A stretch of DNA of 64,000 nt from NCBI GenBank assembly GCA_937858275.1, contig CALLZK010000024.1, forward strand, positions 72,745 through 136,744, written 5' to 3'. The translations under genes and the position numbers were made by a program. Each line of letters begins with the position of its first letter. Within the stretch, counting starts at the first letter, position 1. Below are positions 6,868-57,563 of this stretch, piece by piece. This DNA comes from an uncultured bacterium (GTDB lineage: Bacteria > Patescibacteriota > Minisyncoccia > Phycocordibacterales > JAACPR01). Below the pieces are notes generated by a model. That model worked only from the letters and a program-made list of their open reading frames with translations, did no database searches and had not been told where the DNA came from.

Positions 6868-9800
6868 TTAATATTCTCTAAATTCTTGTACAGAATTTTC
6901 ATATTGTTCTGTTGCTTTTTCTTCAATTTCTTTTGCTTGTTGATTTTTTTTGCTTCCCTTAAAGCCGGTTCCTGCAGGAATCAAACGGCCAAGGATAACA
7001 TTTTCTTTCAAACCATCAAGCGGATCTTCTGCTCCACGAATAGCTGAATTTATTAGAACTTTTGTGGTATGTTGAAAAGATGCGGCTGACAAAAAGCTTT
7101 TTCTTGATAGAGAAACTTCTGTAATACCCAAAACAACGGATTCGGCTTTTGCTTTCATTCCATTATTATTTTCAACTGTCTTATTTTCTTCATTAAAATC
7201 ATCTTTATTTACAATATCTCCATTTGTAAACTTTGTATCTCCACCATCAATAATTCTAACTCTTGAAAACATTTGTCTAACAATAATTTCTATATGTTTT
7301 CTTGAAACAGATTCTCCCTGCAATTCATAAACTTTATTAATTTGGTTGATTATATAATCTTCTGCCTTGTCTTGTCCGGCATATTTGAATATTTCTGATA
7401 TATCCGCAGAACCATCTGTCAAAAATTGTCCTTTCAACACCTCATCTCCAACTTTTACAAGTGGTGTTCTGATATGAGTAACAACATATTCCGAATTTTT
7501 CTTAGTTTTTGCTTTTGTGTCACCTTTTGGAGTAATTATTATTATTTTGTCTTTTCCATCTTCTTTTATTTCTGTCACAAGACCATCAATTTTTGAAATC
7601 AGTGCTGGACTTTTTGGCTTTCTTCTTTCAAAAACCTCTTCCACTCTAGGCAAACCTTGTGTGATGTCTCCACCAACAGAAGCCGTACCTCCAGCATGAA
7701 ATGTTCTCATTGTAAGCTGTGTTCCAGGTTCTCCAATAGCTTGTGCTGCAACAGTTCCAACGGCTTCACCAAGATCTATTAATTCATCTTTTCCAAGGTC
7801 AACACCATAACACTTACTACAAATGCCTCTTTTTGTTTCACATGTTAGAGGTGATCTAACCATAACTTCGGCGACAGTAGAGTCTTCTATCATTTGAGCA
7901 TCTTCTTTTGTAATCAAGTGTCCTTTTTCAAATATTTTTTTACCTTCAGAAATTAAATCTTGTGCCAAAACTCTTCCTTTTATTTTTTTAGCCAAAGAAA
8001 TTTCTATACCAGAATCACTTGTATTTCTTTTTATTGTGATGAATTTTTTTGTACCGCAATCATGCTCTCTAACGATAACATCCTGAGCCACATCGAAAAG
8101 TCTTCTAGTCAAATATCCAGCTCTCGCAGTGTTTAGGGCAGTATCTGTAAGACCCTTTCTTGAACCGTGTGTAGATGTAAAGTATTCTATTGGGCTAAAA
8201 CCTTCTTTACTGCTTGAGATTATTGGGTTTTCAAGCTCTTCTCCTCTTGAGTTTATAATAATACCCTTCATTCCGGCCATTTGAGTAATTTGTCCCAAAG
8301 AACCTCTGGCACCAGACTTCCACATATCGTAAACTGGTCCATTTGAATCCAAGGTATTTGGAATTAAAGATTCTATTTGGGTTTTTGCCCCATGCCAAAT
8401 TGTTGTTAATTTTCTTTTTTTCTCAGCATCTGACAATAAACCTTCGTTGTATTGATTTTTAATTTTTTTGACTTCTTCTAGAGCAGAATTTATTATTGAT
8501 TCTTTTTCGATTGGTATTTGCAAATCATCTATCGCCCAAGTAACTCCTGATTTTGTAGCAAATTTGAAACCGAAATCTTTTATCTTGTCTAGAATTTCAG
8601 GCAAACCATGTAAGCCATATTTGTTAATAAAGTCATTAACAATTTTTGTCATCTTCTTTTTATCAATTTCCTCATTGATAAATGTATAATCATCAGGCAA
8701 GACAGAGTTGAACATTATTCTACCTATTGTTGTTTCTATAGTTTCTTTATCACCATTTATATATTTTGTACCAACTTTTGTTTTTATTAAAATTTTAGCC
8801 CTTAATCCAACAAGACCATAATCGTATGCGGTCATCGCCAAGTTTGGACCAGGAAAAATCATTCCTTCTCCTTTTTCACCATCAACCATTTTAGTAACCC
8901 AAAAACATCCAAGCAAAATATCTAGCAATTTTTGAGAAACTATTGGATCTCCGGATCCTGGCTTCAAAACATTTTTATCGGCAGCCATAATTTCTCTTGC
9001 TTCATATTGAGCAACAACAGACAATGGAACATGAACAGCCATTTGATCACCGTCAAAGTCAGCATTGAAAGCAGTACAAACAAGAGGATGAACTTGAATA
9101 GCATTACCTTCAATTAAAACTGGTTTGAATGCTTGAATACCTAATCTGTGCAAAGTTGGGGCACGATTTAAAAGAACATATTTATCTTGAATTACATCAT
9201 CTAGAATTTCCCAAACTTCCGGAGATTCGTCATCAATTAATCTACCAGCACCTCTTATGTTAAAAGCTAATTCTTTTTTGAGTAATTCAGAAATAATAAA
9301 AGGCCTAAATAACTCCAAAGCCATGTGTTTTGGTAAACCACATTGATTTAATTTTAGTGTTGGACCAATAACAATTACAGATCTTCCAGAATAATCAACT
9401 CTTTTTCCCAGCAAATTACCTCTGAAAAATCCTCTTTTACCCTTCAAGCTGTCGGCTATTGATTTTAGGGGTCTTTTTTGAGCCTGACTTGCCATACTAG
9501 AACTAGAATTATGTCTAATGCTATTATCTAATAATGCATCAACTGCTTCTTGCAAAATTCTTTTTTCATTTCTCAAAATAACATCTGGAGCTCCTATTTC
9601 TTGCAATTTTTTTAGACGATTATTTCTATTTATAACTCTACGATACAAATCGTTTACATCTGATGTTGCCTGTCTTCCACCATCAAGAGCGACCATCGGT
9701 CTAAGTGCTGGAGGAATGACTGGTATGTGTGTCATAAACATCCATTCGGGTCTAATTTCTGACTTAACCATTGCCCTGATCAAACTAATTCTCTTGTTTA

Positions 9801-10551
9801 TTTTTTCTTTTGACAAAGCCGGTGCATCTTTTATTTGATCTTCAAGTTTTTTTAGTAATTCGTTTAAATCTAATTTTTTAAATATTTCATATACAGCTTC
9901 AGCACCAATTTCAGCTTCAAACAAAGATCCATACTTCATGGAATATTTGTGATACACAACCTCATCCAAGACTTGTCCTTGCTGAATTGTGTCTATTTCT
10001 GATTTTGTTTGCAAGTATAAAGATTTTAATTTTTCTTTAGTTTTTTCATCTTGAGCAGTTTTTGTTTTATTTTTAAATTCTGATTCCAAATCATTCAAGA
10101 TTCGCTTTTTTTCATTTTCATGAACTTCGGTTATTAGATATCCTGCAAAATAGATAACTTTTTCAACATCAGATGATTGCATACCAAGCAATGTACTTAT
10201 TCTTGATGGCATACTTCTTAAAAACCAAATATGAGCAACTGGACTTGCCAAAGTTATATGACCCATTCTTTCTCTTCTGACAATAGATCTTGTTACTTCG
10301 ACTCCACATTTTTCACAAACTATTCCTTTATATCTGATGCCACGATATTTTCCACAATAACATTCATAATCTTTTTCTGGACCGAAAATTCTTTCGTCAA
10401 AAAGACCGTTTTTTTCTGATCTTTGAGTACGATAATTTACAGTTTCTGGTTTTGTGACTTCTCCATAAGACCATTCAAGTATTCTATCTGGTGATGCCAA
10501 CTTCAAAAAAATCTTGTCTATTGCTGGTTTTTTGTGTGTTTTTCTTTGCAT
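6868..10551 (-). CDS. rpoC: DNA-directed RNA polymerase beta' subunit RpoC
   Basis: 1227 aa. Zn-binding N-terminus (CYCGKY...CEKCGVEV) and the catalytic NADFDGDQMAVHVP motif. Confidence 0.97.
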   Translation of the reverse strand: MQRKTHKKPAIDKIFLKLASPDRILEWSYGEVTKPETVNYRTQRSEKNGLFDERIFGPEKDYECYCGKYRGIRYKGIVCEKCGVEVTRSIVRRERMGHITLASPVAHIWFLRSMPSRISTLLGMQSSDVEKVIYFAGYLITEVHENEKKRILNDLESEFKNKTKTAQDEKTKEKLKSLYLQTKSEIDTIQQGQVLDEVVYHKYSMKYGSLFEAEIGAEAVYEIFKKLDLNELLKKLEDQIKDAPALSKEKINKRISLIRAMVKSEIRPEWMFMTHIPVIPPALRPMVALDGGRQATSDVNDLYRRVINRNNRLKKLQEIGAPDVILRNEKRILQEAVDALLDNSIRHNSSSSMASQAQKRPLKSIADSLKGKRGFFRGNLLGKRVDYSGRSVIVIGPTLKLNQCGLPKHMALELFRPFIISELLKKELAFNIRGAGRLIDDESPEVWEILDDVIQDKYVLLNRAPTLHRLGIQAFKPVLIEGNAIQVHPLVCTAFNADFDGDQMAVHVPLSVVAQYEAREIMAADKNVLKPGSGDPIVSQKLLDILLGCFWVTKMVDGEKGEGMIFPGPNLAMTAYDYGLVGLRAKILIKTKVGTKYINGDKETIETTIGRIMFNSVLPDDYTFINEEIDKKKMTKIVNDFINKYGLHGLPEILDKIKDFGFKFATKSGVTWAIDDLQIPIEKESIINSALEEVKKIKNQYNEGLLSDAEKKRKLTTIWHGAKTQIESLIPNTLDSNGPVYDMWKSGARGSLGQITQMAGMKGIIINSRGEELENPIISSSKEGFSPIEYFTSTHGSRKGLTDTALNTARAGYLTRRLFDVAQDVIVREHDCGTKKFITIKRNTSDSGIEISLAKKIKGRVLAQDLISEGKKIFEKGHLITKEDAQMIEDSTVAEVMVRSPLTCETKRGICSKCYGVDLGKDELIDLGEAVGTVAAQAIGEPGTQLTMRTFHAGGTASVGGDITQGLPRVEEVFERRKPKSPALISKIDGLVTEIKEDGKDKIIIITPKGDTKAKTKKNSEYVVTHIRTPLVKVGDEVLKGQFLTDGSADISEIFKYAGQDKAEDYIINQINKVYELQGESVSRKHIEIIVRQMFSRVRIIDGGDTKFTNGDIVNKDDFNEENKTVENNNGMKAKAESVVLGITEVSLSRKSFLSAASFQHTTKVLINSAIRGAEDPLDGLKENVILGRLIPAGTGFKGSKKNQQAKEIEEKATEQYENSVQEFREY

Positions 10552-10586
10552 AAATTTTAATTAATTAATTTGATATCTAATAAACA

Positions 10587-13500
10587 TTAATCCTTTTTTT
10601 CTTCTTCATCTTGTTTTTCAGCATGCTCTATATCAATGTCCAAACCAAGTCCTCTCATGTTATTAACTAATACATGGAAAGATGCTGGAATATTTGCTTC
10701 GGTAATAGGTCTTCCTTTTACAATCGCATCAAATGCAGAAGATCGACCAACAATATCATCTGATTTATAAGTCAGCATTTCTCTAAGTGTGTGTGCTGCT
10801 CCGTGACCCAAAAGTGCCCAGACTTCCATTTCTCCAAATCTCTGTCCACCATTTTGAGCTTTACCGCCAAGTGGTTGTTGTGTAATAAGTGAATAAGGTC
10901 CAATTGATCTCATGTGTATCTTGTCTTCAACCATGTGATGTAATTTCATCATATACATATATCCAACCGATATATCTTGTTCAAATTTTTCTCCAGTTCT
11001 ACCATCATACAACGGCATTTTTCCAGTTTCAGAAAAACCAGCTTCTTTTAATTCTTGTCTTATTTCTTCAGTAGTTGCACCGGCAAATGCTGGACAAATA
11101 GCTTGATAATTTAAAGAATTTGCAGCTAATCCAAGATGCAATTCTAAAATTTGACCAAGGTTCATACGACTTGGAACTCCAAGTGGTGTCAAAATTATAT
11201 CTACAGGTGTTCCGTCTTCTGTATATGGCATATCTTCTGCTGGTAAAATTTTTGATATAACACCTTTGTTTCCGTGTCTTCCAGCCAATTTGTCTCCGAC
11301 ACTAATTGGTCTTAGTTGTGCTATTTCAATATGAATTCTTTTTATAATTCCAGAATCTAATTTGTCTCCATTTTCACGAGAAAATATTTTTACCCCAACA
11401 ACCCTACCCCTCAAACCACCCTCGGCTCTTTTTGAAGAATCTTTTACATCTCTTGATTTGTCTCCAAATATTGATCTCAAAAGTCTTTCTTCTGGTGTTA
11501 ATTGTGTTTCACCTTTTGGGGTAATTTTTCCAACCAAAATATCACCCGGCCTAACTTCAGCACCGATTCTAATTATTCCGTCCTCATCTAGATTTTTTAA
11601 TCTTGAATCTCCAACATTTGGAATATCAGAAGTTGTTACTTCTGGACCAAGTCTTGTGTCACGAACATTCACAACAACCTCTTCCATATATATTGATGTC
11701 AAAACATCATCTTTTACAATTCTTTGAGATAAAATAATAGCATCTTCATAGTTTGATCCAGACCAAGACATGAAAGCAACTAAAAGATTTTTACCCAAAG
11801 CAATTTGTCCATTATCACTTGTTGTTGTGTCAGCAAGCAAATCTCCTTTTTTGACCCTATCTCCAACATTAACAATTGGTCTATGGCCGAAAACGGTAAA
11901 GCTGTTTGTTCTTCTTAGATTATCAAGTTCATAATCTGTATTTTTGCTTTTTCCAGTATTTATAGAAATCTTTCTAGCATCAACAAATTCAACAACACCA
12001 GCTTCTTCAGCTCTTATAACTCTGTTAGAATATTTTAAAGCTTCTTCTTCTCTTCCTGTAGCAACTAATGGTGCTTCAGTTTTCAAAACTGGCACAGCTT
12101 GTTTTTGCATGTTGGATGCCATCAGTGCCCTGTTTGCATCGTCATGATCAAGAAAGGGAATCATAGATGTTGCAATAGAAAATGCCTGATTTGGGGCAAC
12201 ATCGATAAAATCAACTTCTGTATTTTTTATAACATTTGGCATTCCATGCATACGGACAGTAATATATTTTTCAACAAAATTATTATTTTCATCTATTTTT
12301 ACAGCAGCATGAGCAATTGCATATTTTTCTTCTTCATGAGCATTCATGTATACAATTTGATTTGTAATTTTTCCATTTTCAACTTTTACATAAGGTGTTT
12401 CTATCATTCCGTATTTATTTGTTCTTGCATAACAAGACAAACGAAGAATCAAACCGATATTTTGTCCTTCTGGGGTTTGGATTGGACAAACTCTTCCGTA
12501 ATGAGATGGGTGCACATCACGAACTTCAAGTCCAGCTCTTTCTCTTGAAAGTCCTCCCGGACCCAATGCTGAAACTGTTCTCAAACTCTCTATTTCAACA
12601 AGCATGTTTTCTTGTTGTAAAAATTGAGATAGTTGATTTGTTGTAAAAAATTCTTTAATTCTGGCCTGAAGTGGTCTTGCGGTGACAAAGTTTGCCGGCA
12701 AAGTATTTGAATTATCAATTGTGGACATTCTATTTTGAATGTTTCTTTTCATTTGTGCCAAACCGACTCTAACTTTTTGTTGTAGTAATTCACCAACAAA
12801 TCTTACTCTTCTTGAACCCAAATGATCAATATCATCAGCTAAAGCATCTGGATTATGATTTAATTCAACAATGTGAGAAATAATAATTGCAATATCTTCT
12901 TTGTCTATGTTTTTTTTCTGCAATGCTTTTTTGTCTGTTGGTAAACCAAATCTATTATTAAATTTGAATCTTCCAACTTCTGACAAATCATATCTTTCTT
13001 CTGACAAAATAGAGTCAACAAACTCTCTTGCATTTTCAAGATTAATCAAATCTCCGTCTCTTAATCTTTTATAAACATCAAGATATGCAACATCAACTTC
13101 TTTTACAGAATCTTTGGCTAATGTTTTTTTGATAGCATCTATTGCTTTTTCTTTACCCTTAAATAAATTTAAAATATCTGAATCTGTATGTGCTCCCAAA
13201 ACTCTTAAAAATGTTGTGGCCAAAAATTTTCGATTTCTGTCTATTCTGACATATACAACATTGTCTTGATCTGTTTCAAATTCTATCCAAGCACCTCGTG
13301 ATGGAATAATTTTTGAACCAAACAAAATTCGTCCCCTGATCAAGTTTGTTGTGAATAACACACCGTATGATCTAGCCAATTGTGGCACAATAACTCTTTC
13401 GACTCCGTTTATAATAAAAGTACCGTGACGAGTCATGATTGGAAATTCAGTCAAAAATATATCTTGCTCTTTTTGTGTTCCCAAAACTTTATTTATAAGT

Positions 13501-37424: not shown

Positions 37425-37760
37425 ATGATAGATAATCACCCTCACAGAAAAGAAAAGATTTTAGAAATTATAACTCATTCAGCATCCGAGTTTATTCAAA
37501 AAGAGTCCAATCAAAACTCAATGATCACAGTTACAAGAGCGGAACTTTCTTCAGACTTTCAAAAAGCCGATATTTTTGTTACAGTTTTTCCAGACGACAA
37601 AGAAGAAAAAGCGATTGAGTTTTTAAAAAGAAACTTGAATGAATTTAGAGATTTTGTAAAATCAAAAACCAGACTTCAGCATATTCCGTGGTTTGATTTT
37701 AAAATAGATCAAGGTGAGAAAAAAAGACAAAGAATTGACGAACTGTCTTTAAAAATTTAA
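37425..37760 (+). CDS. rbfA: Ribosome-binding factor A
   Basis: RbfA-like core ...SMITVTRAELSSDFQKADIFVTVF..., located immediately after infB. The ATG at 37425 lies 1 nt after the infB stop. The six-frame track gives an alternative upstream start at 37404. Confidence 0.8.
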   Translation: MIDNHPHRKEKILEIITHSASEFIQKESNQNSMITVTRAELSSDFQKADIFVTVFPDDKEEKAIEFLKRNLNEFRDFVKSKTRLQHIPWFDFKIDQGEKKRQRIDELSLKI

Positions 37761-37763
37761 AAT

Positions 37764-37835
37764 GGCGTGGTGGCGAAGTGGAAACGCTGCGGTCTGCAAA
37801 ACCGCCATGCGCGGGTTCGATTCCCGCCCACGCCT
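37764..37835 (+). tRNA. tRNA-Cys (GCA)
   Basis: Acceptor stem GGCGTGG/CCACGCC, anticodon loop CTGCAAA, T-arm GCGGGTTCGATTCCCGC, discriminator U as is typical for tRNA-Cys. Confidence 0.8.
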
Positions 37836-37867
37836 CAAGTTTGAAAATATTTTCAAACAAAAATAAA

Positions 37868-37949
37868 GCCCGGGTGGCGGAATTGGTATACGCGCACGAC
37901 TTAAAATCGTGTCCCTTACGGGTTGCGGGTTCGACCCCCGCCCCGGGCA
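37868..37949 (+). tRNA. tRNA-Leu (TAA), type II
   Basis: Acceptor stem GCCCGGG/CCCGGGC, anticodon stem-loop CACGA-CTTAAAA-TCGTG, long variable arm, T-arm GCGGGTTCGACCCCCGC. Confidence 0.85.
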
Positions 37950-38007
37950 CAAATAGAAAGTTTTAAAATTACAAGTGCACTCGCACGACTTTCTATTCAA
38001 ATATTTG

Positions 38008-38050
38008 CGTGTCCCTTACGGGTTGCGGGTTCGACCCCCGCCCCGGGCAC
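38008..38050 (+). repeat. 43-nt direct duplicate of the 3' portion of tRNA-Leu(TAA) (identical to 37908-37950), exactly 100 bp downstream
   Basis: CGTGTCCCTTACGGGTTGCGGGTTCGACCCCCGCCCCGGGCAC occurs twice. The intervening 57 bp contains a 10-bp inverted repeat AATAGAAAGT/ACTTTCTATT. Confidence 0.85.
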
Positions 38051-38061
38051 AATAAAATAAA

Positions 38062-38134
38062 CCGCCCATAGCTCAGTTGGTAGAGCACCCGCCTCTTAAG
38101 CGGAGGGTCGTAGGTTCAAATCCTACTGGGCGGA
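38062..38134 (+). tRNA. tRNA-Lys (CTT)
   Basis: Acceptor stem CCGCCCA/TGGGCGG, D-arm GCTCAGTTGGTAGAGC, anticodon loop CTCTTAA, T-arm GTAGGTTCAAATCCTAC. Confidence 0.8.
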
Positions 38135-38192
38135 CAAAAATAATTTAAAAATCTTGCTTAGTTATGTTTTTATGTGTAATATATTTAACATT

Positions 38193-38273
38193 GCGCGGGT
38201 GGTGAAATGGCAGACACGCTTGCCTTAGGAGCAAGTGCCGCAAGGCATGGAGGTTCAAGTCCTCTCCCGCGCA
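38193..38273 (+). tRNA. tRNA-Leu (TAG), type II
   Basis: Acceptor stem GCGCGGG/CCCGCGC, anticodon stem-loop CTTGC-CTTAGGA-GCAAG, long variable arm, T-arm GGAGGTTCAAGTCCTCT. Confidence 0.85.
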
Positions 38274-38626
38274 CATAAAACAAAGGAGGAGGATGCGAAA
38301 GCATTCTCCGACTTTTGTTTTACAAGCGGAGAGGGCTTGAAAGCCGGACTGAGTAAAAAGAGCGGAGCGATTTTTTACGAAGGAGGCGGGGTCGCGAGTT
38401 TCGAGGCAAAGCCGAGAAAATTTGTGACCAAGTCCTCTCCCGCGCACATAAAACAAAGGAGGAGGATGCGAAAGCATTCTCCGACTTTTGTTTTACAAGC
38501 GGAGAGGGCTTGAAAGCCGGACTGAGTAAAAAGAGCGGAGCGATTTTTTACGAAGGAGGCGGGGTCGCGAGTTTCGAGGCAAAGCCGAGAAAACTTGTGA
38601 CCAAGTCCTCTCCCGCGCACATAAAA
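38256..38626 (+). repeat. 173-bp tandem repeat, about 2.1 copies, each unit beginning with the last approximately 19 nt of tRNA-Leu(TAG)
   Basis: Units at 38256-38428 and 38429-38601, plus a partial third copy at 38602-38626. The full units differ by a single T/C. CAAGTCCTCTCCCGCGCACATAAAA recurs three times. Confidence 0.9.
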
Positions 38627-38705
38627 TCGCAAAAAAATATTTTAATATTATTTTTTGCCATAATTAAATAATCATCAAAAATCAAAATTACTAAAACAAA
38701 TCGAT

Positions 38706-38735
38706 CAATTTCTGATTGACAAAACAGTATTTTAT
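38706..38735 (+). promoter_or_regulatory. Promoter TTGACA-18-TGtTATAAT driving the SPFH-like island operon
   Basis: Same sequence family as 29804-29833. Followed by a 9-bp hairpin (38752-38776), a second hairpin GCCGGACAATCCGGC, and an AAAGGAG Shine-Dalgarno. Confidence 0.55.
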
Positions 38736-38848
38736 ATGTTATAATTAAAGATAGAAAAATAACTCTTTAACCTGTTGTTAAAGAGATTGAACATTGTCAG
38801 AAAGTAAGTTTGATAAAGCCGGACAATCCGGCAAAAGGAGAATGAGTT

Positions 38849-39997
38849 ATGAGTGGATTTTTGATAGTATTTGTGTTTGGCGGGTTAATCTCGGCATTTC
38901 TGGCCATTGTGGCCGGAGCATCTTCTTTTGGAATGTCAAAGGAAGATCATGACAGCGAGGTTCCGCAAGGGCCTCGAATGTTATTCCACTTCCTATCGGC
39001 GATAATTGTCTTTGCAATAACGGTGATTTTATCTTCATTATTGATTGACAAGGTGGGCCTGTTTAACAGACCACTTCCCCTTATTTTGGGGGTAATGTTT
39101 GCCGGAGCGGTTTTCAAGATTCCAGCATTCTACACAGAAGTTGCTGGAAACACCGCCAAAGTCGCGGTTCCGCTTTTTGGTGGAACAATTGGCGACAAGG
39201 GAATTGTTTTGTACCGAATTTTTCTATCTGGTTTCAAATGGAAATTTCCATGGGAAACCTTTGGGAAAGACTCGTCAGTTGACTTGGAGAAAGATACAAC
39301 AATTTCCAAGTCGATTGAGGTTGAGTTTGCTGACGGTATAGGCAAACTAACATGGGTCGCAACTATGCAACCCAACAAAAACAAAATCCAGCAACTTTTA
39401 AACATCGGAATAAATCCCGATGAAAGAAAAAAAGTGTTGGAAGCAGTTTTTACATCATTCTTCAATTCACTCATCGGTGTTGCCTGCAAAGGTGAGAAAA
39501 TCGATGAGATTATGGGTGATCGTAAAAAAATCATCCAAAAGGTCGTTGGAGACAAAGCATCCAACGGTCTGGAAGAAAAAGAACTGATGTACGGCATCAG
39601 CCTTAACTCGTTTGTGATCAGTGATATAGATTACTCAAGCGAGGACAGAAAGAAAGCCAAGGAACAGATGGCTGTTGCAGACATTTTTATGCAAACAGTT
39701 GTTATGATCCTAAAAAGACGAGGTTTTACCGATGAGCAAGTCGGTAAAATTGGAAAAAAAGGTGGAGTTCCGAAGAAAGAATATGCCGAGGCGGTTCGCC
39801 TTGCCAAGATTCTTTCGGACGAGGTCAATGCCTGGGATATCAATATATCGGGTATTGAAAATCTGCAAAATCTTCACCTACCAGCAGATGCCGCAAGAAT
39901 GATGTTTGCTGCTGGTGGCCAGAAAACTGGTCGCCAAGGAAATCAACAAAAACCGTTTTCCGGGCAAAAATCCGGGAACGGGAAAGGGGAAAAATGA
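38849..39997 (+). CDS. Membrane protein with three N-terminal TM helices and an SPFH/Band-7-like (stomatin/flotillin/HflKC-like) domain; Gly/Gln-rich C-terminal tail
   Basis: The hydrophobic N-terminus is followed by a domain that follows the SPFH consensus pattern, ending in ...YGISLNSFVISDIDYSSEDRKKAKEQMAVAD. About 40-53% GC. Confidence 0.55.
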   Translation: MSGFLIVFVFGGLISAFLAIVAGASSFGMSKEDHDSEVPQGPRMLFHFLSAIIVFAITVILSSLLIDKVGLFNRPLPLILGVMFAGAVFKIPAFYTEVAGNTAKVAVPLFGGTIGDKGIVLYRIFLSGFKWKFPWETFGKDSSVDLEKDTTISKSIEVEFADGIGKLTWVATMQPNKNKIQQLLNIGINPDERKKVLEAVFTSFFNSLIGVACKGEKIDEIMGDRKKIIQKVVGDKASNGLEEKELMYGISLNSFVISDIDYSSEDRKKAKEQMAVADIFMQTVVMILKRRGFTDEQVGKIGKKGGVPKKEYAEAVRLAKILSDEVNAWDINISGIENLQNLHLPADAARMMFAAGGQKTGRQGNQQKPFSGQKSGNGKGEK

Positions 39998-40479
39998 GCT
40001 CAACATCACAAACCCAAAAGACAATAAACAAAATAGTCTTTTGGGTAACAATGTTGGCGGTGGTGATAATCATCATCGTCTTCATGCCCAAGTGTGGCAG
40101 TGATCGTAATTCGGGCAGTTGTGCGATACCAGTGTCCTCATCGGACACGAAAACCGCAAAAACAGTGCCGAATTACGGTCCAGCCATCATAAGGTTGGGC
40201 CCCGGGGAAATCACGGACATAATCCTGACGAGGGGCGAATTCTTTGAGTGGAATTGCCCCACTGATGGATTCAAAATCCGAGTGTTTCAAAGAAACGGAA
40301 TGCCTTTCGTTTCCAGAAACACTGATCCGGGTGGATGGGTTTTGAGGATATCGAATTGCATTCGATATCAATGCTGGTTGAAAGATATAACCAGCATGTC
40401 GGTACATGGGATACAATTTGGTGTACCGACCAATCTGTCTTCTGGTGTAGAAATTCAATACACCAGAAACAGAATGTAA
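39994..40479 (+). CDS. Hypothetical membrane-anchored Cys-containing protein (161 aa); possible NfeD-like partner of the SPFH protein
   Basis: Its start overlaps the previous stop (ATGA). One TM helix followed by a beta-rich region with 5 Cys. About 53% GC. Confidence 0.5.
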   Translation: MSSTSQTQKTINKIVFWVTMLAVVIIIIVFMPKCGSDRNSGSCAIPVSSSDTKTAKTVPNYGPAIIRLGPGEITDIILTRGEFFEWNCPTDGFKIRVFQRNGMPFVSRNTDPGGWVLRISNCIRYQCWLKDITSMSVHGIQFGVPTNLSSGVEIQYTRNRM

Positions 40480-46715: not shown

Positions 46716-47051
46716 TTACAAACCAGGAATTGTAGGTACTGCTGTTGTTCCACCGGTTCCTATACCAAATGTTGATGCCAACAATTCAATAATTCCCCAA
46801 ACGGAGACTATCACAAACAAGCCCACTATACCCCAAATCATAAAAGATTTTGCTTCAGATTGTCCGTCAGCATCTTTTGAAAGAATATATTTTATAACAC
46901 CCCAAATGAATGTTAATAAAGCAATACCAATCAAAATTGGAACCAAAGAACTAATTATTCCACCTATTGTATTTACTCCATCTGTTAATGTCTGAGCAAA
47001 AGACACAACAGGTAAAATGAAAGCAACTAATAAATAAGAAACATGTTTCAT
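46716..47051 (-). CDS. Pilin-like (TrbC/VirB2-like) small membrane protein paralog 5
   Basis: Signal peptide ending SFA-QTL, then helix, a charged loop SKDADGQSEAKS, a second helix, and a Gly/Thr-rich tail. Confidence 0.55.
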   Translation of the reverse strand: MKHVSYLLVAFILPVVSFAQTLTDGVNTIGGIISSLVPILIGIALLTFIWGVIKYILSKDADGQSEAKSFMIWGIVGLFVIVSVWGIIELLASTFGIGTGGTTAVPTIPGL

Positions 47052-47166
47052 GTTAAATTTAAATTTTAAGAATGTTATTAATAATACATTTGAACTATCT
47101 TAAATAGCTCAGTATTAATTATATATTATTAAATATTAAATAACAATAAAAATAGTGTGGATTGTT

Positions 47167-47430
47167 TTATAATCTAATTATTGGTATTCCAAAAGAAAAT
47201 CCAAATGTACCCGATACCATAGAAACTATTCCCCAAAAAGAAACCATCACAAAAAGACCAATTATTCCAGCCGCAATATATCTCAAACTTTCTTTCCTTT
47301 TTTCTTCGCTATCAGAATTTGTAAGGTATATAACAAGACCATACAAAAAGACAACTAGTGCTATTGCGATGATGAATAAAGCAACATATCCAGACAAAAC
47401 TGTTATTCTATAAAATACCTGCTGAAGCAT
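47167..47430 (-). CDS. Pilin-like small membrane protein paralog 4; no signal peptide
   Basis: Two TM helices joined by the loop TNSDSEEKRKESLRY. Confidence 0.5.
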   Translation of the reverse strand: MLQQVFYRITVLSGYVALFIIAIALVVFLYGLVIYLTNSDSEEKRKESLRYIAAGIIGLFVMVSFWGIVSMVSGTFGFSFGIPIIRL

Positions 47431-47486
47431 AATTTTATTTATTTAATTAATTATATAATAACACAAATTATTAATATCGTAATACC

Positions 47487-47840
47487 CTATGGCCTTAAAG
47501 ACCTTATTGATTCTGGTTGTGTTGGCAGAGAAACATTTCCAACTCTAAAAGTTCTCTGTAACATAACAACCAAACCCCAAACAGATACCATTACAAAAAG
47601 GAATATTATACCGTAGACTATCACCGAAACCGCATTCTTTTTTTCTGATTCACTGGTTGATATTACATATTTTATTATACCCCAAATAAAAGCGACTAAA
47701 CCAAGACCGATGATTAGGGGTATGATATATATTTTTATTATGAGCGATAAATAAATAAAAAAATCATTTAAGTTACCAATTGATTGGGCATATGATATGT
47801 TTGGTAAAAAAATTAAAGCAAATTTTAAAAATATATTCAT
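47487..47840 (-). CDS. Pilin-like small membrane protein paralog 3
   Basis: Signal peptide ending SYA-QSI, then two helices and the loop STSESEKKNAVS. Confidence 0.55.
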   Translation of the reverse strand: MNIFLKFALIFLPNISYAQSIGNLNDFFIYLSLIIKIYIIPLIIGLGLVAFIWGIIKYVISTSESEKKNAVSVIVYGIIFLFVMVSVWGLVVMLQRTFRVGNVSLPTQPESIRSLRP

Positions 47841-47844
47841 AATT

Positions 47845-48192
47845 TTATATATTAACTCCCAATCCTCTGGCAGTACTTACAATAATATTACTTAGCAATT
47901 GAGCACCAAGCAAAACAATTGCCCCGATAACTGTCCACAAGAACACACTTTTTGCTTGATTTATTTTTTCTGGATTACCCCTTGCTGCGATAAATAGAAA
48001 TCCGGCATAAATTATGGCAAGTACCACAATCACAGTTCCAACTGTTACAACAACATCTAATATTCTATTTATCAGAACCCCCATATTACTAACCCCTATC
48101 GGATCATTTAGTCCGCTATTTAATGTTTGACCAAATGTAATTGTTGGTAAAAGTATTGTTGTCAAAAAACCTGTTTTAATTATTTGTTTCAT
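47845..48192 (-). CDS. Pilin-like small membrane protein paralog 2
   Basis: Signal peptide ending TFG-QTL, then two helices and the loop ARGNPEKINQAKS. Confidence 0.55.
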   Translation of the reverse strand: MKQIIKTGFLTTILLPTITFGQTLNSGLNDPIGVSNMGVLINRILDVVVTVGTVIVVLAIIYAGFLFIAARGNPEKINQAKSVFLWTVIGAIVLLGAQLLSNIIVSTARGLGVNI

Positions 48193-48193
48193 A

Positions 48194-48607
48194 TTATCTA
48201 ATTACTCTGTTATAAAGTTCTATTATTTCTCTACCTGTTGGAGTAGATTTTAAACCAAAAGCCGCAGCTATTAAATCAACAATCAAATAAGCCGATATTG
48301 CAAACAAAAAACCAAATAATATTTTTTTGAATACACCATGAGCTTTTGATATTTGGGAGGAATTGCCAGCAGCTGTCATATACAAAAATCCTGCCCAAGC
48401 AAAACCTATTGCCGACAGAACTAAACCGATATTTATTGCAAATTTTATTATATTGACCAATAGTGTTCCAACCGCATTCAAATCACATTTAGGTCCACCA
48501 TCAGCTCTTGGTCCGACACATGGGACTAGTCCCGCGAAAGACTGTAGAGGTATGAAAACGGTAAAACAAATTAAAAATATTTTGATTAGGTTTTTTCTGA
48601 AATTCAT
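48194..48607 (-). CDS. Pilin-like small membrane protein paralog 1
   Basis: Signal peptide ending SFA-GLV, a Cys pair (CVGPRADGGPKC), then two helices and the loop AAGNSSQISKAHG. Confidence 0.55.
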   Translation of the reverse strand: MNFRKNLIKIFLICFTVFIPLQSFAGLVPCVGPRADGGPKCDLNAVGTLLVNIIKFAINIGLVLSAIGFAWAGFLYMTAAGNSSQISKAHGVFKKILFGFLFAISAYLIVDLIAAAFGLKSTPTGREIIELYNRVIR

Positions 48608-56390: not shown

Positions 56391-57563
56391 ATGAAAAAAA
56401 CAAATAAACAAGAAGGAAATAATATTTTAAAGTCAGAATTAATTGCTAAATATTTTGGTTTTATAAAAACACAACCAGAAGAAGTCACAAAAGAAGATGA
56501 AAAAGTCACAAGTGCAATAAGTCGACAAAAAAATTATATTTCTGAAAATTTACCATCAATTTCTGAAATGTATGCCCTGCTTAGAAGATATAAAGATGAC
56601 AAAGAAAAAGAAATGGTTGAGCCAGATGTTATTTATTATGAGGGATCAGCATCAGGAAAACATCCAAAACATAGAAAAAAAAGTGGCGAGGAATTGATAA
56701 ATTTACAAATTATAAATGTTAATGGCAGTATTGCAGAGGCGGTTATAATTCAAACCATAAAAACAATTTTAGCAGAACATGGTATAAAAAACATAATTGT
56801 AAAATTAAATGATATTGGCGACAGAGACTGTTTAAATGCATATTATAGAGAAGCTACGAATTACTACAGAAAAAACATAAACGAATTAAATAATCATTGC
56901 CGTCAATTATTTAAGGAGGGTGTTCACGAACTTGTAACAAGAGGTAAAAATCAATGTACAACAATTCATGAAAATGCCCCAAAACCGATGGATTTTTTGG
57001 ATGAGGAATCAAGAAAAAGATTCAGTGAGGTTTTGGAATTTTTAGAAACATTAGATATACAATACGAAGTTGATCATTCCATACTTGGTGATCCGAATTA
57101 TTCAACACATACAGTTTTTGAAGTAATGGACAAAGAAACTGAACGAATTTTTTCTTCCGGGGGTCGATATGATTCTTTGGCTAGAAAAAGTGGTTTGAGA
57201 AAAGACATACCATCTGTTGGTGCTCTTTTAAATTTACCAAATCCACAAGTGGTTTCATCAAAAATAATCAAAAAATTTGATAAAGCAAATTTCTTTTTCC
57301 TACAAATTGGATATATGGCAAAATTAAAATCTCTTCTTGTTATAGAAGAGTTTAGAAACAAAAATATTCCAGTTATACACAAATTATATCGTGACAGATT
57401 AAGTAGTCAGATATCTTCCGCAAAAAAATCTAGTTCTGAACATTTTATAATAATGGGACAGAAAGAAGCACTTGCCGACGAATTGATTGTTAGGGATAGA
57501 GAAAGCAAATCTCAAAAAATAGTTAAGTTCAAAGACTTATTTGAATATATAAAATCTTTATAA
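56391..57563 (+). CDS. Histidyl-tRNA synthetase-like paralog with a degenerate class II catalytic core and an intact anticodon-binding-like C-terminus (HisZ-like)
   Basis: HisRS motif-3-like SSGGRYDSLA and a class IIa anticodon-binding-domain-like tail (IIMGQKEALADELIVRDRES). Motif 2 (the FRxE / RxxxGRxREF pattern) is not recognisable. Confidence 0.6.
   Translation: MKKTNKQEGNNILKSELIAKYFGFIKTQPEEVTKEDEKVTSAISRQKNYISENLPSISEMYALLRRYKDDKEKEMVEPDVIYYEGSASGKHPKHRKKSGEELINLQIINVNGSIAEAVIIQTIKTILAEHGIKNIIVKLNDIGDRDCLNAYYREATNYYRKNINELNNHCRQLFKEGVHELVTRGKNQCTTIHENAPKPMDFLDEESRKRFSEVLEFLETLDIQYEVDHSILGDPNYSTHTVFEVMDKETERIFSSGGRYDSLARKSGLRKDIPSVGALLNLPNPQVVSSKIIKKFDKANFFFLQIGYMAKLKSLLVIEEFRNKNIPVIHKLYRDRLSSQISSAKKSSSEHFIIMGQKEALADELIVRDRESKSQKIVKFKDLFEYIKSL

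Follow-up and report, generated by a model that had tools for sequence, protein, structure and literature searches.

The window analysed here, a 64-kb stretch of contig CALLZK010000024.1 whose flanking proteins carry the name Candidatus Paceibacterota (Patescibacteria, or candidate phyla radiation, CPR), harbors a plus-strand cluster of transfer RNA (tRNA) genes directly 3' of infB-rbfA, in the order Cys, Leu(TAA), Lys(CTT) and Leu(TAG). Two tRNA 3' ends are duplicated within this cluster: that of tRNA-Leu(TAA), and that of tRNA-Leu(TAG), which opens a tandem array of 173-bp units. An initial annotation of the sequence had read both as scars of integrase-mediated insertion at attachment (att) sites. 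Our analysis indicates that the 173-bp unit is probably something else, namely the native hairpin that follows tRNA-Leu(TAG) joined to a member of a conserved, tRNA-linked family of structured RNAs. The tRNA boundaries were called by ARAGORN and Rfam, and the repeats match the tRNA 3' ends so delimited. All coordinates are collected in Table 1; loci in other assemblies and contigs are given as L numbers.

Tandem Repeats Finder (TRF) placed the array at 38256-38626, with a period of 173, 2.1 copies and 99% matches. Two full units (38256-38428 and 38429-38601) are followed by the 25-nt start of a third (38602-38626), so that the layout is A-X-A-X-A with A of 25 nt and X of 148 nt. A comprises 18 nt of tRNA-Leu(TAG), from C56 in the T-loop to the discriminator base, and the 7-nt trailer CATAAAA; the second and third copies are each identical to the first at 25 of 25 positions. 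This confirms the initial description of a unit starting in the tRNA-Leu(TAG) end, repeated 2.1 times with one mismatch. The sole difference between the units, T at 38421 versus C at 38594, replaces a G.U pair of copy 1 with a G-C pair in copy 2 and thus keeps the pairing of helix P4 described below. No further match to either tRNA-Leu 3' end was found within the window, and shuffled sequence gave 0 matches like the observed tRNA-end repeats. Coding potential of the unit was rejected, as the period of 173 cannot be divided by 3 and the open reading frames (ORFs) shift frame from one unit to the next; an endless-ORF tandem repeat was ruled out likewise.

We consider it highly improbable that the array is an assembly artefact, with the genome truly carrying a single unit or the copy number being misassembled. 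Three of the five assemblies of this strain do break or show a gap exactly in the array: L002 and L004 begin within it or at its end, and L003 (GCA_035327505.1) carries 100 N inside it. However, the fifth assembly, L001, is base-for-base identical to the window, including the 2.1 copies, and the C variant of the distal unit was seen beside the distal flank in L002 and L003, pointing to two distinct copies in the reads. Because this variant was seen independently, the existence of at least two units is solid, although their exact number is uncertain. Tandem or clustered copies are also common at other loci of the family, and a genome with just one unit would still have the motif within an A-X-A' structure. 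The array is present in every assembly of the strain, with no empty site among them.

Each unit consists of P1, a terminator-like hairpin, and a module of about 125 nt that comprises a segment antisense to the tRNA end ('anti'), a three-way-junction core of about 88 nt and the copy of the tRNA end (A'). Relatives, located via their initiation factor IF-2 (78-69% identity), all show 'CACA-TAAAACAAA-hairpin-TTTTGTTTT' after tRNA-Leu(TAG) and no repeat. None of them has duplicated tRNA ends. Positional orthologues of P1 occur in four of them (L006, L007, L010 and L012), and the hairpin of L006, GGAGGATAC-GCAA-GTATTCTCC, differs from that of the window, GGAGGATGC-GAAA-GCATTCTCC, by a compensatory change that keeps the GNRA loop. 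Judging from these sequence comparisons, P1 is therefore the native terminator-like trailer hairpin of tRNA-Leu(TAG). With its GC (guanine plus cytosine) hairpin, U-tract and conserved position it has the marks of an intrinsic terminator, and a terminator scan matched at 38288-38309 and 38461-38482, with the tail GACTTTTGTT. The remaining 106 nt of the unit (Y), starting with GCGGAGAGGGCTTGAA, have no counterpart in the relatives or elsewhere in the window.

Overlooked by the initial annotation, the tRNA end (T-loop, T-stem and acceptor 3' strand) is also present within the unit in antisense orientation, at 38326-38341, and this segment pairs with 14 nt of the tRNA end. The predicted folding of the unit is far more stable than that of shuffled sequences on the plus strand (z = -8.8) and less so on the minus strand (z = -3.75). 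Y together with the downstream copy of A is predicted to form a three-way junction (-79.9 kcal/mol, z = -8.2) of P2, in which anti pairs with A, P3 (GCC-GGA...GA-GGC) and P4 (GGUCGCGAGUUUC-GA-GGCAAAGCC-GA-G-AAAAUUUGUGACC); P3 and P4 each contain a tandem G.A internal loop. P2 of the window spans about 14 bp and is followed by GCACA, a predicted minihelix-like geometry of the acceptor plus T-stem type (about 12 bp) that would make it a candidate substrate of RNase P, RNase Z and the CCA-adding enzyme. For the window RNA two near-degenerate states are predicted. In the minimum free energy state (-121.3 kcal/mol), anti pairs with the 3' half of the real tRNA (p = 0.95), while a state with the tRNA cloverleaf and the closed motif lies at -114.0 kcal/mol.

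When the P4 20-mer was scanned over 185,579 species genomes, four of the five matches were chance hits in high-GC genomes and only one was real. This was L018, a Saccharibacteria metagenome-assembled genome (MAG), in which the module follows tRNA-Lys(TTT) and its terminator in 2-3 copies. All window and L018 copies adopt one predicted fold, and the opposite strand folds poorly. From the conserved pieces of the window and this Saccharibacteria homologue we derived a degenerate core pattern (AGCCGGA...GAGG-NNN-GGUC...UUUCGAG...GA-G-AAAA...GACC, folding into P3 and P4), which locally matched only the four known copies, those of the window at 38342-38405 and 38515-38578. The pattern retrieved 47 metagenome contigs; about 38 of these also agree in a conserved 3' half, for which the pattern did not select, and 9 are high-GC chance matches. 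One member with 50% GC is likewise from Patescibacteria. Five scans of viral contigs returned no copy of the motif, and a phage origin was rejected on this ground.

An alignment of 28 non-redundant members was used to build a covariance model, which gave 45 hits. Over these hits, in an alignment fitted in part to the model, 96.2% of the cells are paired as compared to 80.5% after shuffling (0/500), and 18 of 23 pairs show double-sided changes, with a score of 0.41 versus 0.05-0.10 for slid partners. Conserved G.U pairs occur on the tRNA-sense strand only, and P2 (anti paired with A') covaries at 7/7 pairs. Pairwise core identity goes down to 53% with pairing kept. The window copies are divergent members (53-55 bits compared to 100-115 bits typically), their cores being 53-71% identical to other members and closest to a copy linked to tRNA-Leu(CAG). 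A small structured RNA, which the initial annotation had offered as its fallback for the GC-rich unit, is thus supported by both the fold and the RNA-type covariation among homologs.

No Rfam 15 family overlaps the core, either in permissive mode (window, L018, L046, L025 and L035) or in gathering mode (20 loci), and none of the known ribozymes, riboswitches or tRNA-like families in Rfam matches the motif. Weak matches to the tmRNA, YrlA and mascRNA models were confined to tRNA genes and to the copy at Leu(TAA). We found no description of the motif in the literature searched, in which the nearest paper concerns group I introns in anticodon loops (PMC13011429). Going by Rfam 15 and this literature, the motif apparently represents an undescribed family of tRNA-linked structured RNAs in Patescibacteria. 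A motif copy in L026 has a LOOT RNA (Rfam RF03000, 82.6 bits; 8371-8484, minus strand) as its neighbor on the opposite strand, some 220 nt away.

Of 29 non-redundant copies, 21 have a same-strand tRNA that ends 38-67 nt 5' of the core. More than 10 tRNA species are represented, across many genomes, among them Lys, Leu, Arg, Val, Trp, Pro and Gly; in the window, tRNA-Leu(TAG) ends 67 nt before core copy 1, with P1 in between. Some copies lie between tRNAs of one operon, including a Cys-Leu-Lys-[motif]-Leu(TAG) cluster in L020 and L028, and in L045 a copy follows each of three successive tRNAs. One long, near-perfect hairpin of 20-28 bp with an A-tract/U-tract interior begins in the tRNA, at its last 3-4 acceptor bases, and ends directly before the core, and the 5' flank of the core is therefore antisense to the tRNA end and its genomic trailer. 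This flank covaries with its own tRNA end (GGACAGC/GCTGTCC, CGCACCCATAAG/CTTATGGGTGCG and CCCGCAACG/CGTTGCGGG), and its helix with the own tRNA has a mean length of 11.3 bp as compared to 6.6 +/- 0.3 bp when the tRNAs are permuted. At L007 (9741-9830) and at several loci of the majority type described next, terminator hairpins often reach into the last tRNA nucleotides (CACA...UGUG), even where the motif is absent, which may be a general feature.

In the majority of members (type 1), the 3' flank carries only a short, CACAA-like copy and P2 has 4-7 bp. The eight type-2 members (the window, L024, L034, L044, L046, L054, L057 and L061) carry a copy of the tRNA end of 13-25 nt, starting at C56; that of L024 is linked to Leu(TAG) and resembles the window's. 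Further type-2 copies, in L027 and L043, have no tRNA nearby. As the layout of anti and A' recurs behind many tRNAs, the repeated tRNA 3' end belongs to the makeup of the RNA itself, and its presence can be explained without an att scar. At two loci, L044 (3081-3154) and L051 (844-917), ARAGORN reported a tRNA with the anticodon UUA ('tRNA-Stop(tta)') whose 3' end equals that of the relatives' tRNA-Lys(CTT) and which is followed by a type-2 motif copy; such a tRNA on a CPR metagenome contig might act in recoding or resemble an ochre suppressor.

Table 1. Features of the tRNA cluster, the 173-bp array and their surroundings, in window coordinates
Feature	Position	Strand	Remarks
Promoter-like site TTGACG-17-TAAAAT	37735-37763	+	just 5' of tRNA-Cys; candidate tRNA-operon promoter from a consensus scan
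tRNA-Cys(GCA)	37764-37836	+	ARAGORN, Rfam
tRNA-Leu(TAA)	37868-37950	+	ARAGORN, Rfam
Leu(TAA) repeat, proximal copy	37908-37952	+	within tRNA-Leu(TAA), plus 2 nt of trailer
57-nt spacer with trailer/terminator-like hairpin	37951-38007	+	arms 37952-37961 / 37988-37997
Leu(TAA) repeat, distal copy (exact)	38008-38052	+	forms a partial pseudo-tRNA with 37979-37991; diverged at 9 positions in L003
tRNA-Lys(CTT)	38062-38135	+	ARAGORN, Rfam
tRNA-Leu(TAG)	38193-38274	+	ARAGORN, Rfam; 38256-38280 is repeat copy A1
P1 copy 1 (A-tract / GC hairpin with GAAA loop / U-tract)	38277-38322	+	intrinsic-terminator-like; orthologous to the relatives' tRNA-Leu(TAG) trailer hairpin
anti copy 1, GCGGAGAGGGCTTGAA	38326-38341	+	complements tRNA positions ~54-70, with a single G.U and a single bulge
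Motif core copy 1 (P3 + P4)	38342-38429	+	covariance-model hit 38332-38437, 53 bits, E = 7e-10
A2, direct copy of tRNA 3' end	38429-38453	+	3' strand of the copy-1 closing helix P2; start of unit 2
P1 copy 2	38450-38495	+	by unit identity; terminator scan
anti copy 2	38499-38514	+	by unit identity
Motif core copy 2	38515-38602	+	covariance-model hit 38505-38610, 55 bits, E = 2e-10
A3, third copy of tRNA 3' end	38602-38626	+	closing helix of core copy 2
AT-rich palindrome	38626-38661	+	3' of the array
Promoter-like site, perfect TTGACA-18-TATAAT	38716-38745	+	scan; of the downstream gene, outside the element
Band_7/SPFH-like gene and small ORF	38849-40479	+	native, syntenic, fast-evolving pair, 44% GC; context only

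In the att reading, elements would have inserted at the T-loop of tRNA-Leu(TAG) and at the anticodon stem of tRNA-Leu(TAA) and then been mostly lost, or a mini-element would have been mobilised in trans. The direct repeats indeed start in these two parts of the tRNAs; T-loop and anticodon-loop sublocations are reportedly classical integrase sites in tRNA genes. The tRNAs are left intact, as at known att sites, and A-X-A-X-A could arise from integration of a dimer. In another lineage (L028, about 9833-11470, minus strand; also in L032 and L037), a large serine recombinase gene (Resolvase, Recombinase and Zn_ribbon_recom domains) abuts or overlaps the tRNA-Leu(TAG) of the Cys-Leu-Lys-[motif]-Leu cluster, which suggests a real integrated element at that tRNA there. 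Against this stands, in the window, the lack of an integrase or cargo. A Pfam search of 50 large ORFs across the whole window found no integrase, resolvase, transposase or reverse transcriptase domain, only housekeeping genes, so the initial observation that no integrase is present holds. Viral contigs were likewise free of copies, plasmid collections being outside the search. Furthermore, the ancestral trailer of tRNA-Leu(TAG), P1, follows the first copy of the repeat and not the last. The 148 bp between the repeats are a native terminator and a conserved RNA whose helices show compensatory changes and whose G.U pairs are confined to one strand. In most members the repeat is only 4-7 nt long, and an antisense copy, for which att sites have no need, covaries with the tRNA. 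Taken together, the att reading is very unlikely, and for the 173-bp array it is largely refuted. The same evidence of a native hairpin, a conserved RNA behind more than 10 tRNA species and no integrase gives no support to the very recent event or active integrative element that had been proposed at the array.

The downstream genes bear on the same question. GC content is about 30% in the window and 44-52% in the tRNA/array region and the two genes 3' of it, and this difference (44% versus 30%) had prompted us to consider a genomic island 3' of tRNA-Leu(TAG). The window and its relatives share one gene order, clpB, protease, aminotransferase, DUF4446, infB, rbfA, tRNA cluster, Band_7-like gene and small ORF, and no further att copy was found. 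The Band_7/SPFH-like gene looked like an ORFan at first, as a word-based search of 5.8 billion proteins returned only itself; the Band_7-like proteins are 31-32% identical to their syntenic orthologues, where the IF-2 comparison gives 73%. As orthologues occupy the same place in the relatives, this gene and the 161-aa ORF are, on the basis of synteny, a native, fast-evolving pair and not island cargo, and the island was rejected.

The duplication at tRNA-Leu(TAA) is a separate case. The initial annotation had noted that the last 43 nt of this tRNA recur exactly 100 bp downstream; the repeat is confirmed but spans 45 nt (37908-37952 and 38008-38052, spacing 100), as it includes 2 nt of trailer. 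It starts in the anticodon stem. The 57-nt spacer contains the 10-bp inverted repeat described before and folds with z = -5.2. In addition, its segment 37979-37991, which had been missed, matches positions ~22-34 of tRNA-Leu(TAA) (37890-37902) at 12 of 13 nt. Together with the distal copy it forms a partial pseudo-tRNA that has 16 nt in place of a 5-nt anticodon-loop segment and thus lacks an anticodon loop. The covariance model detected no motif core at this duplication. A group I intron remnant in the pseudo-copy, considered in view of the anticodon-loop introns of PMC13011429 and the classic 34/35 site, was not supported, since the junctions misfit, with positions 35-39 lacking, and nothing resembling an intron RNA was detected.

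At this site the att reading fares better. The first part of the spacer resembles the relatives' native trailer hairpin, and the ancestral-type trailer (CACAATAAA...), which matches the relatives' trailers, follows the distal copy, as expected of attR. Together with the start in the anticodon stem this is in line with the earlier proposal of an att scar, but no element is present and the event is not very recent. The near-identical strain L003, which differs from the window by 1 mismatch in the 5 kb upstream and 0 in the 1.1 kb downstream, shows about 13 differences within about 200 bp around tRNA-Leu(TAA) (L003 5165-5340 versus window 37861-38053): 3 in the 57-nt spacer, 9 in the distal copy and trailer, and 1 in the Cys-Leu spacer. 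This patch looks like an imported or converted allele, i.e., a recombination or gene-conversion tract, or like a chimeric assembly. As the duplication is shared by the diverged alleles of the window and L003, it is not very recent. The 45-nt duplication is a separate, older partial pseudo-tRNA, for which a decayed tandem tRNA duplication fits equally well as an old att scar.

A serious rival to our reading of the 173-bp unit, although we consider it rather unlikely, is a non-autonomous mobile element that spreads between tRNA genes, either akin to miniature inverted-repeat transposable elements (MITEs) or cis-mobilizable elements (CIMEs) or RNA-guided, with anti and A' derived from or guiding to the target and the RNA serving the element. 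Consistent with this, the motif is present or absent among related species and occurs behind many tRNAs in several, sometimes tandem, copies per locus. The copies in L018 are mosaic, with identical first halves and different P4 hairpins, and the window shares a 21-nt identical P4 strand with the Saccharibacteria MAG. The tRNA:anti helices are perfectly Watson-Crick, and A' of the window matches the tRNA end without a difference, 7 nt of trailer included. However, no protein is common to the loci, and viral contigs gave no hits. A' repeats the tRNA end in sense orientation rather than the point of insertion, which lies behind the hairpin; anti fits its own target at each site, and a cut-and-paste element could not carry it along. 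The core has moreover undergone long-term compensatory evolution.

A transposase gene adjoins one copy: at L057 (4412-4861), a gene for an IS200-like Y1 transposase (TnpA) starts 105 nt 3' of a type-2 copy, and such a gene is absent at the other loci. An origin from the IS200/IS605 family, as a palindrome-associated transposable element (PATE) or omega-RNA, was not supported, with TnpA near L057 only, hairpin sequences unconserved and the tRNA gene unsplit. The motif also lacks the marks of a MITE or transposon-derived repeat, as there are no conserved terminal inverted repeats and no fixed-length duplication, the flanks track the neighboring tRNA and the direct repeats vary from about 4 to 25 nt. 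A group IIC intron was discarded as well: the apparent 'GUGCG' start is the tRNA-end antisense and varies with the tRNA (UGUCCG, UGUGCC, UUGCGGG), Intron_gpII gave no hit and the core has about 88 nt. Group II introns are reported to be absent in Patescibacteria (PMC13011429). The motif resembles group IIC introns, MITEs/CIMEs and PATEs in that it lies just after a terminator hairpin, is rich in hairpins, multicopy and patchy; it differs from them in its variable 5' end, the lack of an Rfam domain V/VI match, and the lack of terminal inverted repeats, a fixed target duplication and an associated reverse transcriptase or transposase.

With a similarly low probability, the motif may be a stand-alone small stable RNA, acting in trans or within a ribonucleoprotein, that resides in tRNA operons only for expression and excision by tRNA-processing enzymes and whose closing helix mimics the acceptor/T-arm minihelix. 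The sequence of P4 and of the junctions is strongly conserved, and a pair of tandem G.A motifs, as present here, is typically seen in protein-binding sites. In type-2 members, P2 corresponds to acceptor and T-stem 5' strands paired to the T-stem 3' strand, acceptor 3' strand and discriminator; the spacing to flanking tRNAs is tRNA-like, and the type-2 copies L027 and L043 stand apart from tRNAs. On the other hand, the P2 of type 1, with its few base pairs, is not minihelix-like, and pairing to the upstream tRNA end and trailer reaches up to 20 bp. A terminator-like hairpin always precedes the core, and a scan showed no evident promoter of its own.

We therefore return to the native hairpin plus tRNA-linked RNA as the probable nature of the unit. 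The most plausible function, which we put forward tentatively, is to act in cis, as a module within the transcripts of tRNA operons. Two partners that exclude each other are predicted for anti: the real tRNA end, which would extend the terminator hairpin, or A', which would close helix P2. In this model, the module would be made by read-through past the P1 hairpin, and anti would first keep the 3' end of the tRNA, together with its trailer, bound in a long duplex. As the core folded with A', strands would be exchanged and anti pulled off the tRNA end. The tRNA end would thereby be freed, and the acceptor/T-arm-like minihelix or long-duplex structures that arise could be cut by RNase P, RNase Z or RNase III, which would separate the tRNA from the downstream RNA. 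The window encodes RNase III, an RNB exonuclease (exoribonuclease) and YbeY. Once an A-P1-anti-core-A' arrangement existed, A-X-A-X-A may have followed; the array is best explained by unequal recombination (sister-strand exchange) or replication slippage, with the 25-nt direct repeats, spaced by 173 bp, as substrates.

Several observations weigh against this interpretation. About a quarter of the copies have no detectable adjacent tRNA. The helices between tRNA end and anti are nearly pure Watson-Crick, with 0 G.U pairs in 15 of 21, and copying at the DNA level would fit them too. The covariation counts derive partly from a model-fitted alignment, and the copy number of the array is uncertain, with three other short-read assemblies broken or carrying Ns. 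The closest relatives lack the motif at this site, its distribution is patchy, genomes carry it in multiple copies, and a second CPR class has a P4 that is nearly identical; these features hint at mobility or horizontal transfer, and strictly vertical descent of an RNA gene does not account for them. Transcription past the terminator-like hairpin is an assumption, and the processing or switch model draws on architecture and thermodynamic prediction.

A further, unlikely version of events is that the motif is an RNA device acting on the preceding tRNA, as a ribozyme or nuclease platform, or an RNA-guided mobile element that targets tRNA 3' ends with anti as its guide. In its device form, the tRNA 3' end could be created or gated by strand exchange, as an RNA-based step of tRNA 3' maturation or quality control in genome-reduced CPR bacteria. 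A cis-regulatory leader of the downstream gene was rejected, as the genes downstream of the motif loci are heterogeneous, unrelated and often convergent.

Among known systems, the motif can be compared with three-segment alternative-pairing switches, such as attenuators and riboswitch expression platforms: anti, as segment 2, can pair with either the tRNA end (segment 1) or A' (segment 3), segments 2 and 3 enclose a conserved folded domain, and a terminator-like hairpin forms part of one alternative. In contrast to these, the motif follows a tRNA and is not situated in an mRNA leader. With mascRNA (MALAT1), the tRNA-like domain of tmRNA, viral 3' tRNA-like structures and YrlA, the motif shares an acceptor/T-arm-like helix and a tRNA-type 3' end, which could recruit RNase P, RNase Z and the CCA-adding enzyme, and it too is placed in series with a second RNA, the end of which it may set. 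Unlike these mimics, it has no cloverleaf or T-loop, its T-loop bases being paired with the antisense, and it copies the neighboring tRNA rather than a fixed sequence. Another trailer RNA of a tRNA operon, also with Cys and Leu, is 3'ETS-leuZ of Escherichia coli, a short unstructured small RNA sponge from the glyW-cysT-leuZ operon; the motif differs from it by a three-way junction of about 90 nt and a tRNA-complementary flank, and the two have no sequence relation.

If the motif is undescribed, as Rfam 15 and the searched literature suggest, it would constitute a new and fairly widespread class of structured RNAs in Patescibacteria, a group in which RNA biology has hardly been explored. The architecture is out of the ordinary: two copies of the neighboring tRNA 3' end, one antisense and one sense, flank a conserved three-way junction that sits exactly at the end of the tRNA's terminator hairpin. 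This points to a direct functional link with tRNA transcripts, be it processing, insulation of the tRNA operon, a switch or mimicry, and may provide a handle on the maturation of polycistronic tRNAs in genome-reduced bacteria. There is also a consequence for annotation. It is common practice to take a duplicated tRNA 3' end for an att scar and to set island boundaries by it; as the copies are here part of an RNA, this procedure would yield a false island call around native genes in the window.

Beyond the array, the tRNA cluster is a hotspot of rearrangement in the relatives, five of whose contigs end within it. In L007/L008 (8235-9524), a GC-rich gene for a glycine-rich N_methyl (pilin-like) protein sits between tRNA-Lys and tRNA-Leu(TAG), and in L012 (6892-7972) three of the four cluster tRNAs are inverted. 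An array of small T4SS_pilin-like genes is found in the window at 46716-48604 and also 3' of the cluster in L006, L007, L010 and L012. Finally, a 390-aa ORF at 56391-57560 of the window combines a weak tRNA-synt_His match (E = 1e-8) with an HGTP_anticodon domain and may encode a divergent histidyl-tRNA synthetase (HisRS) or a HisZ-like paralogue.

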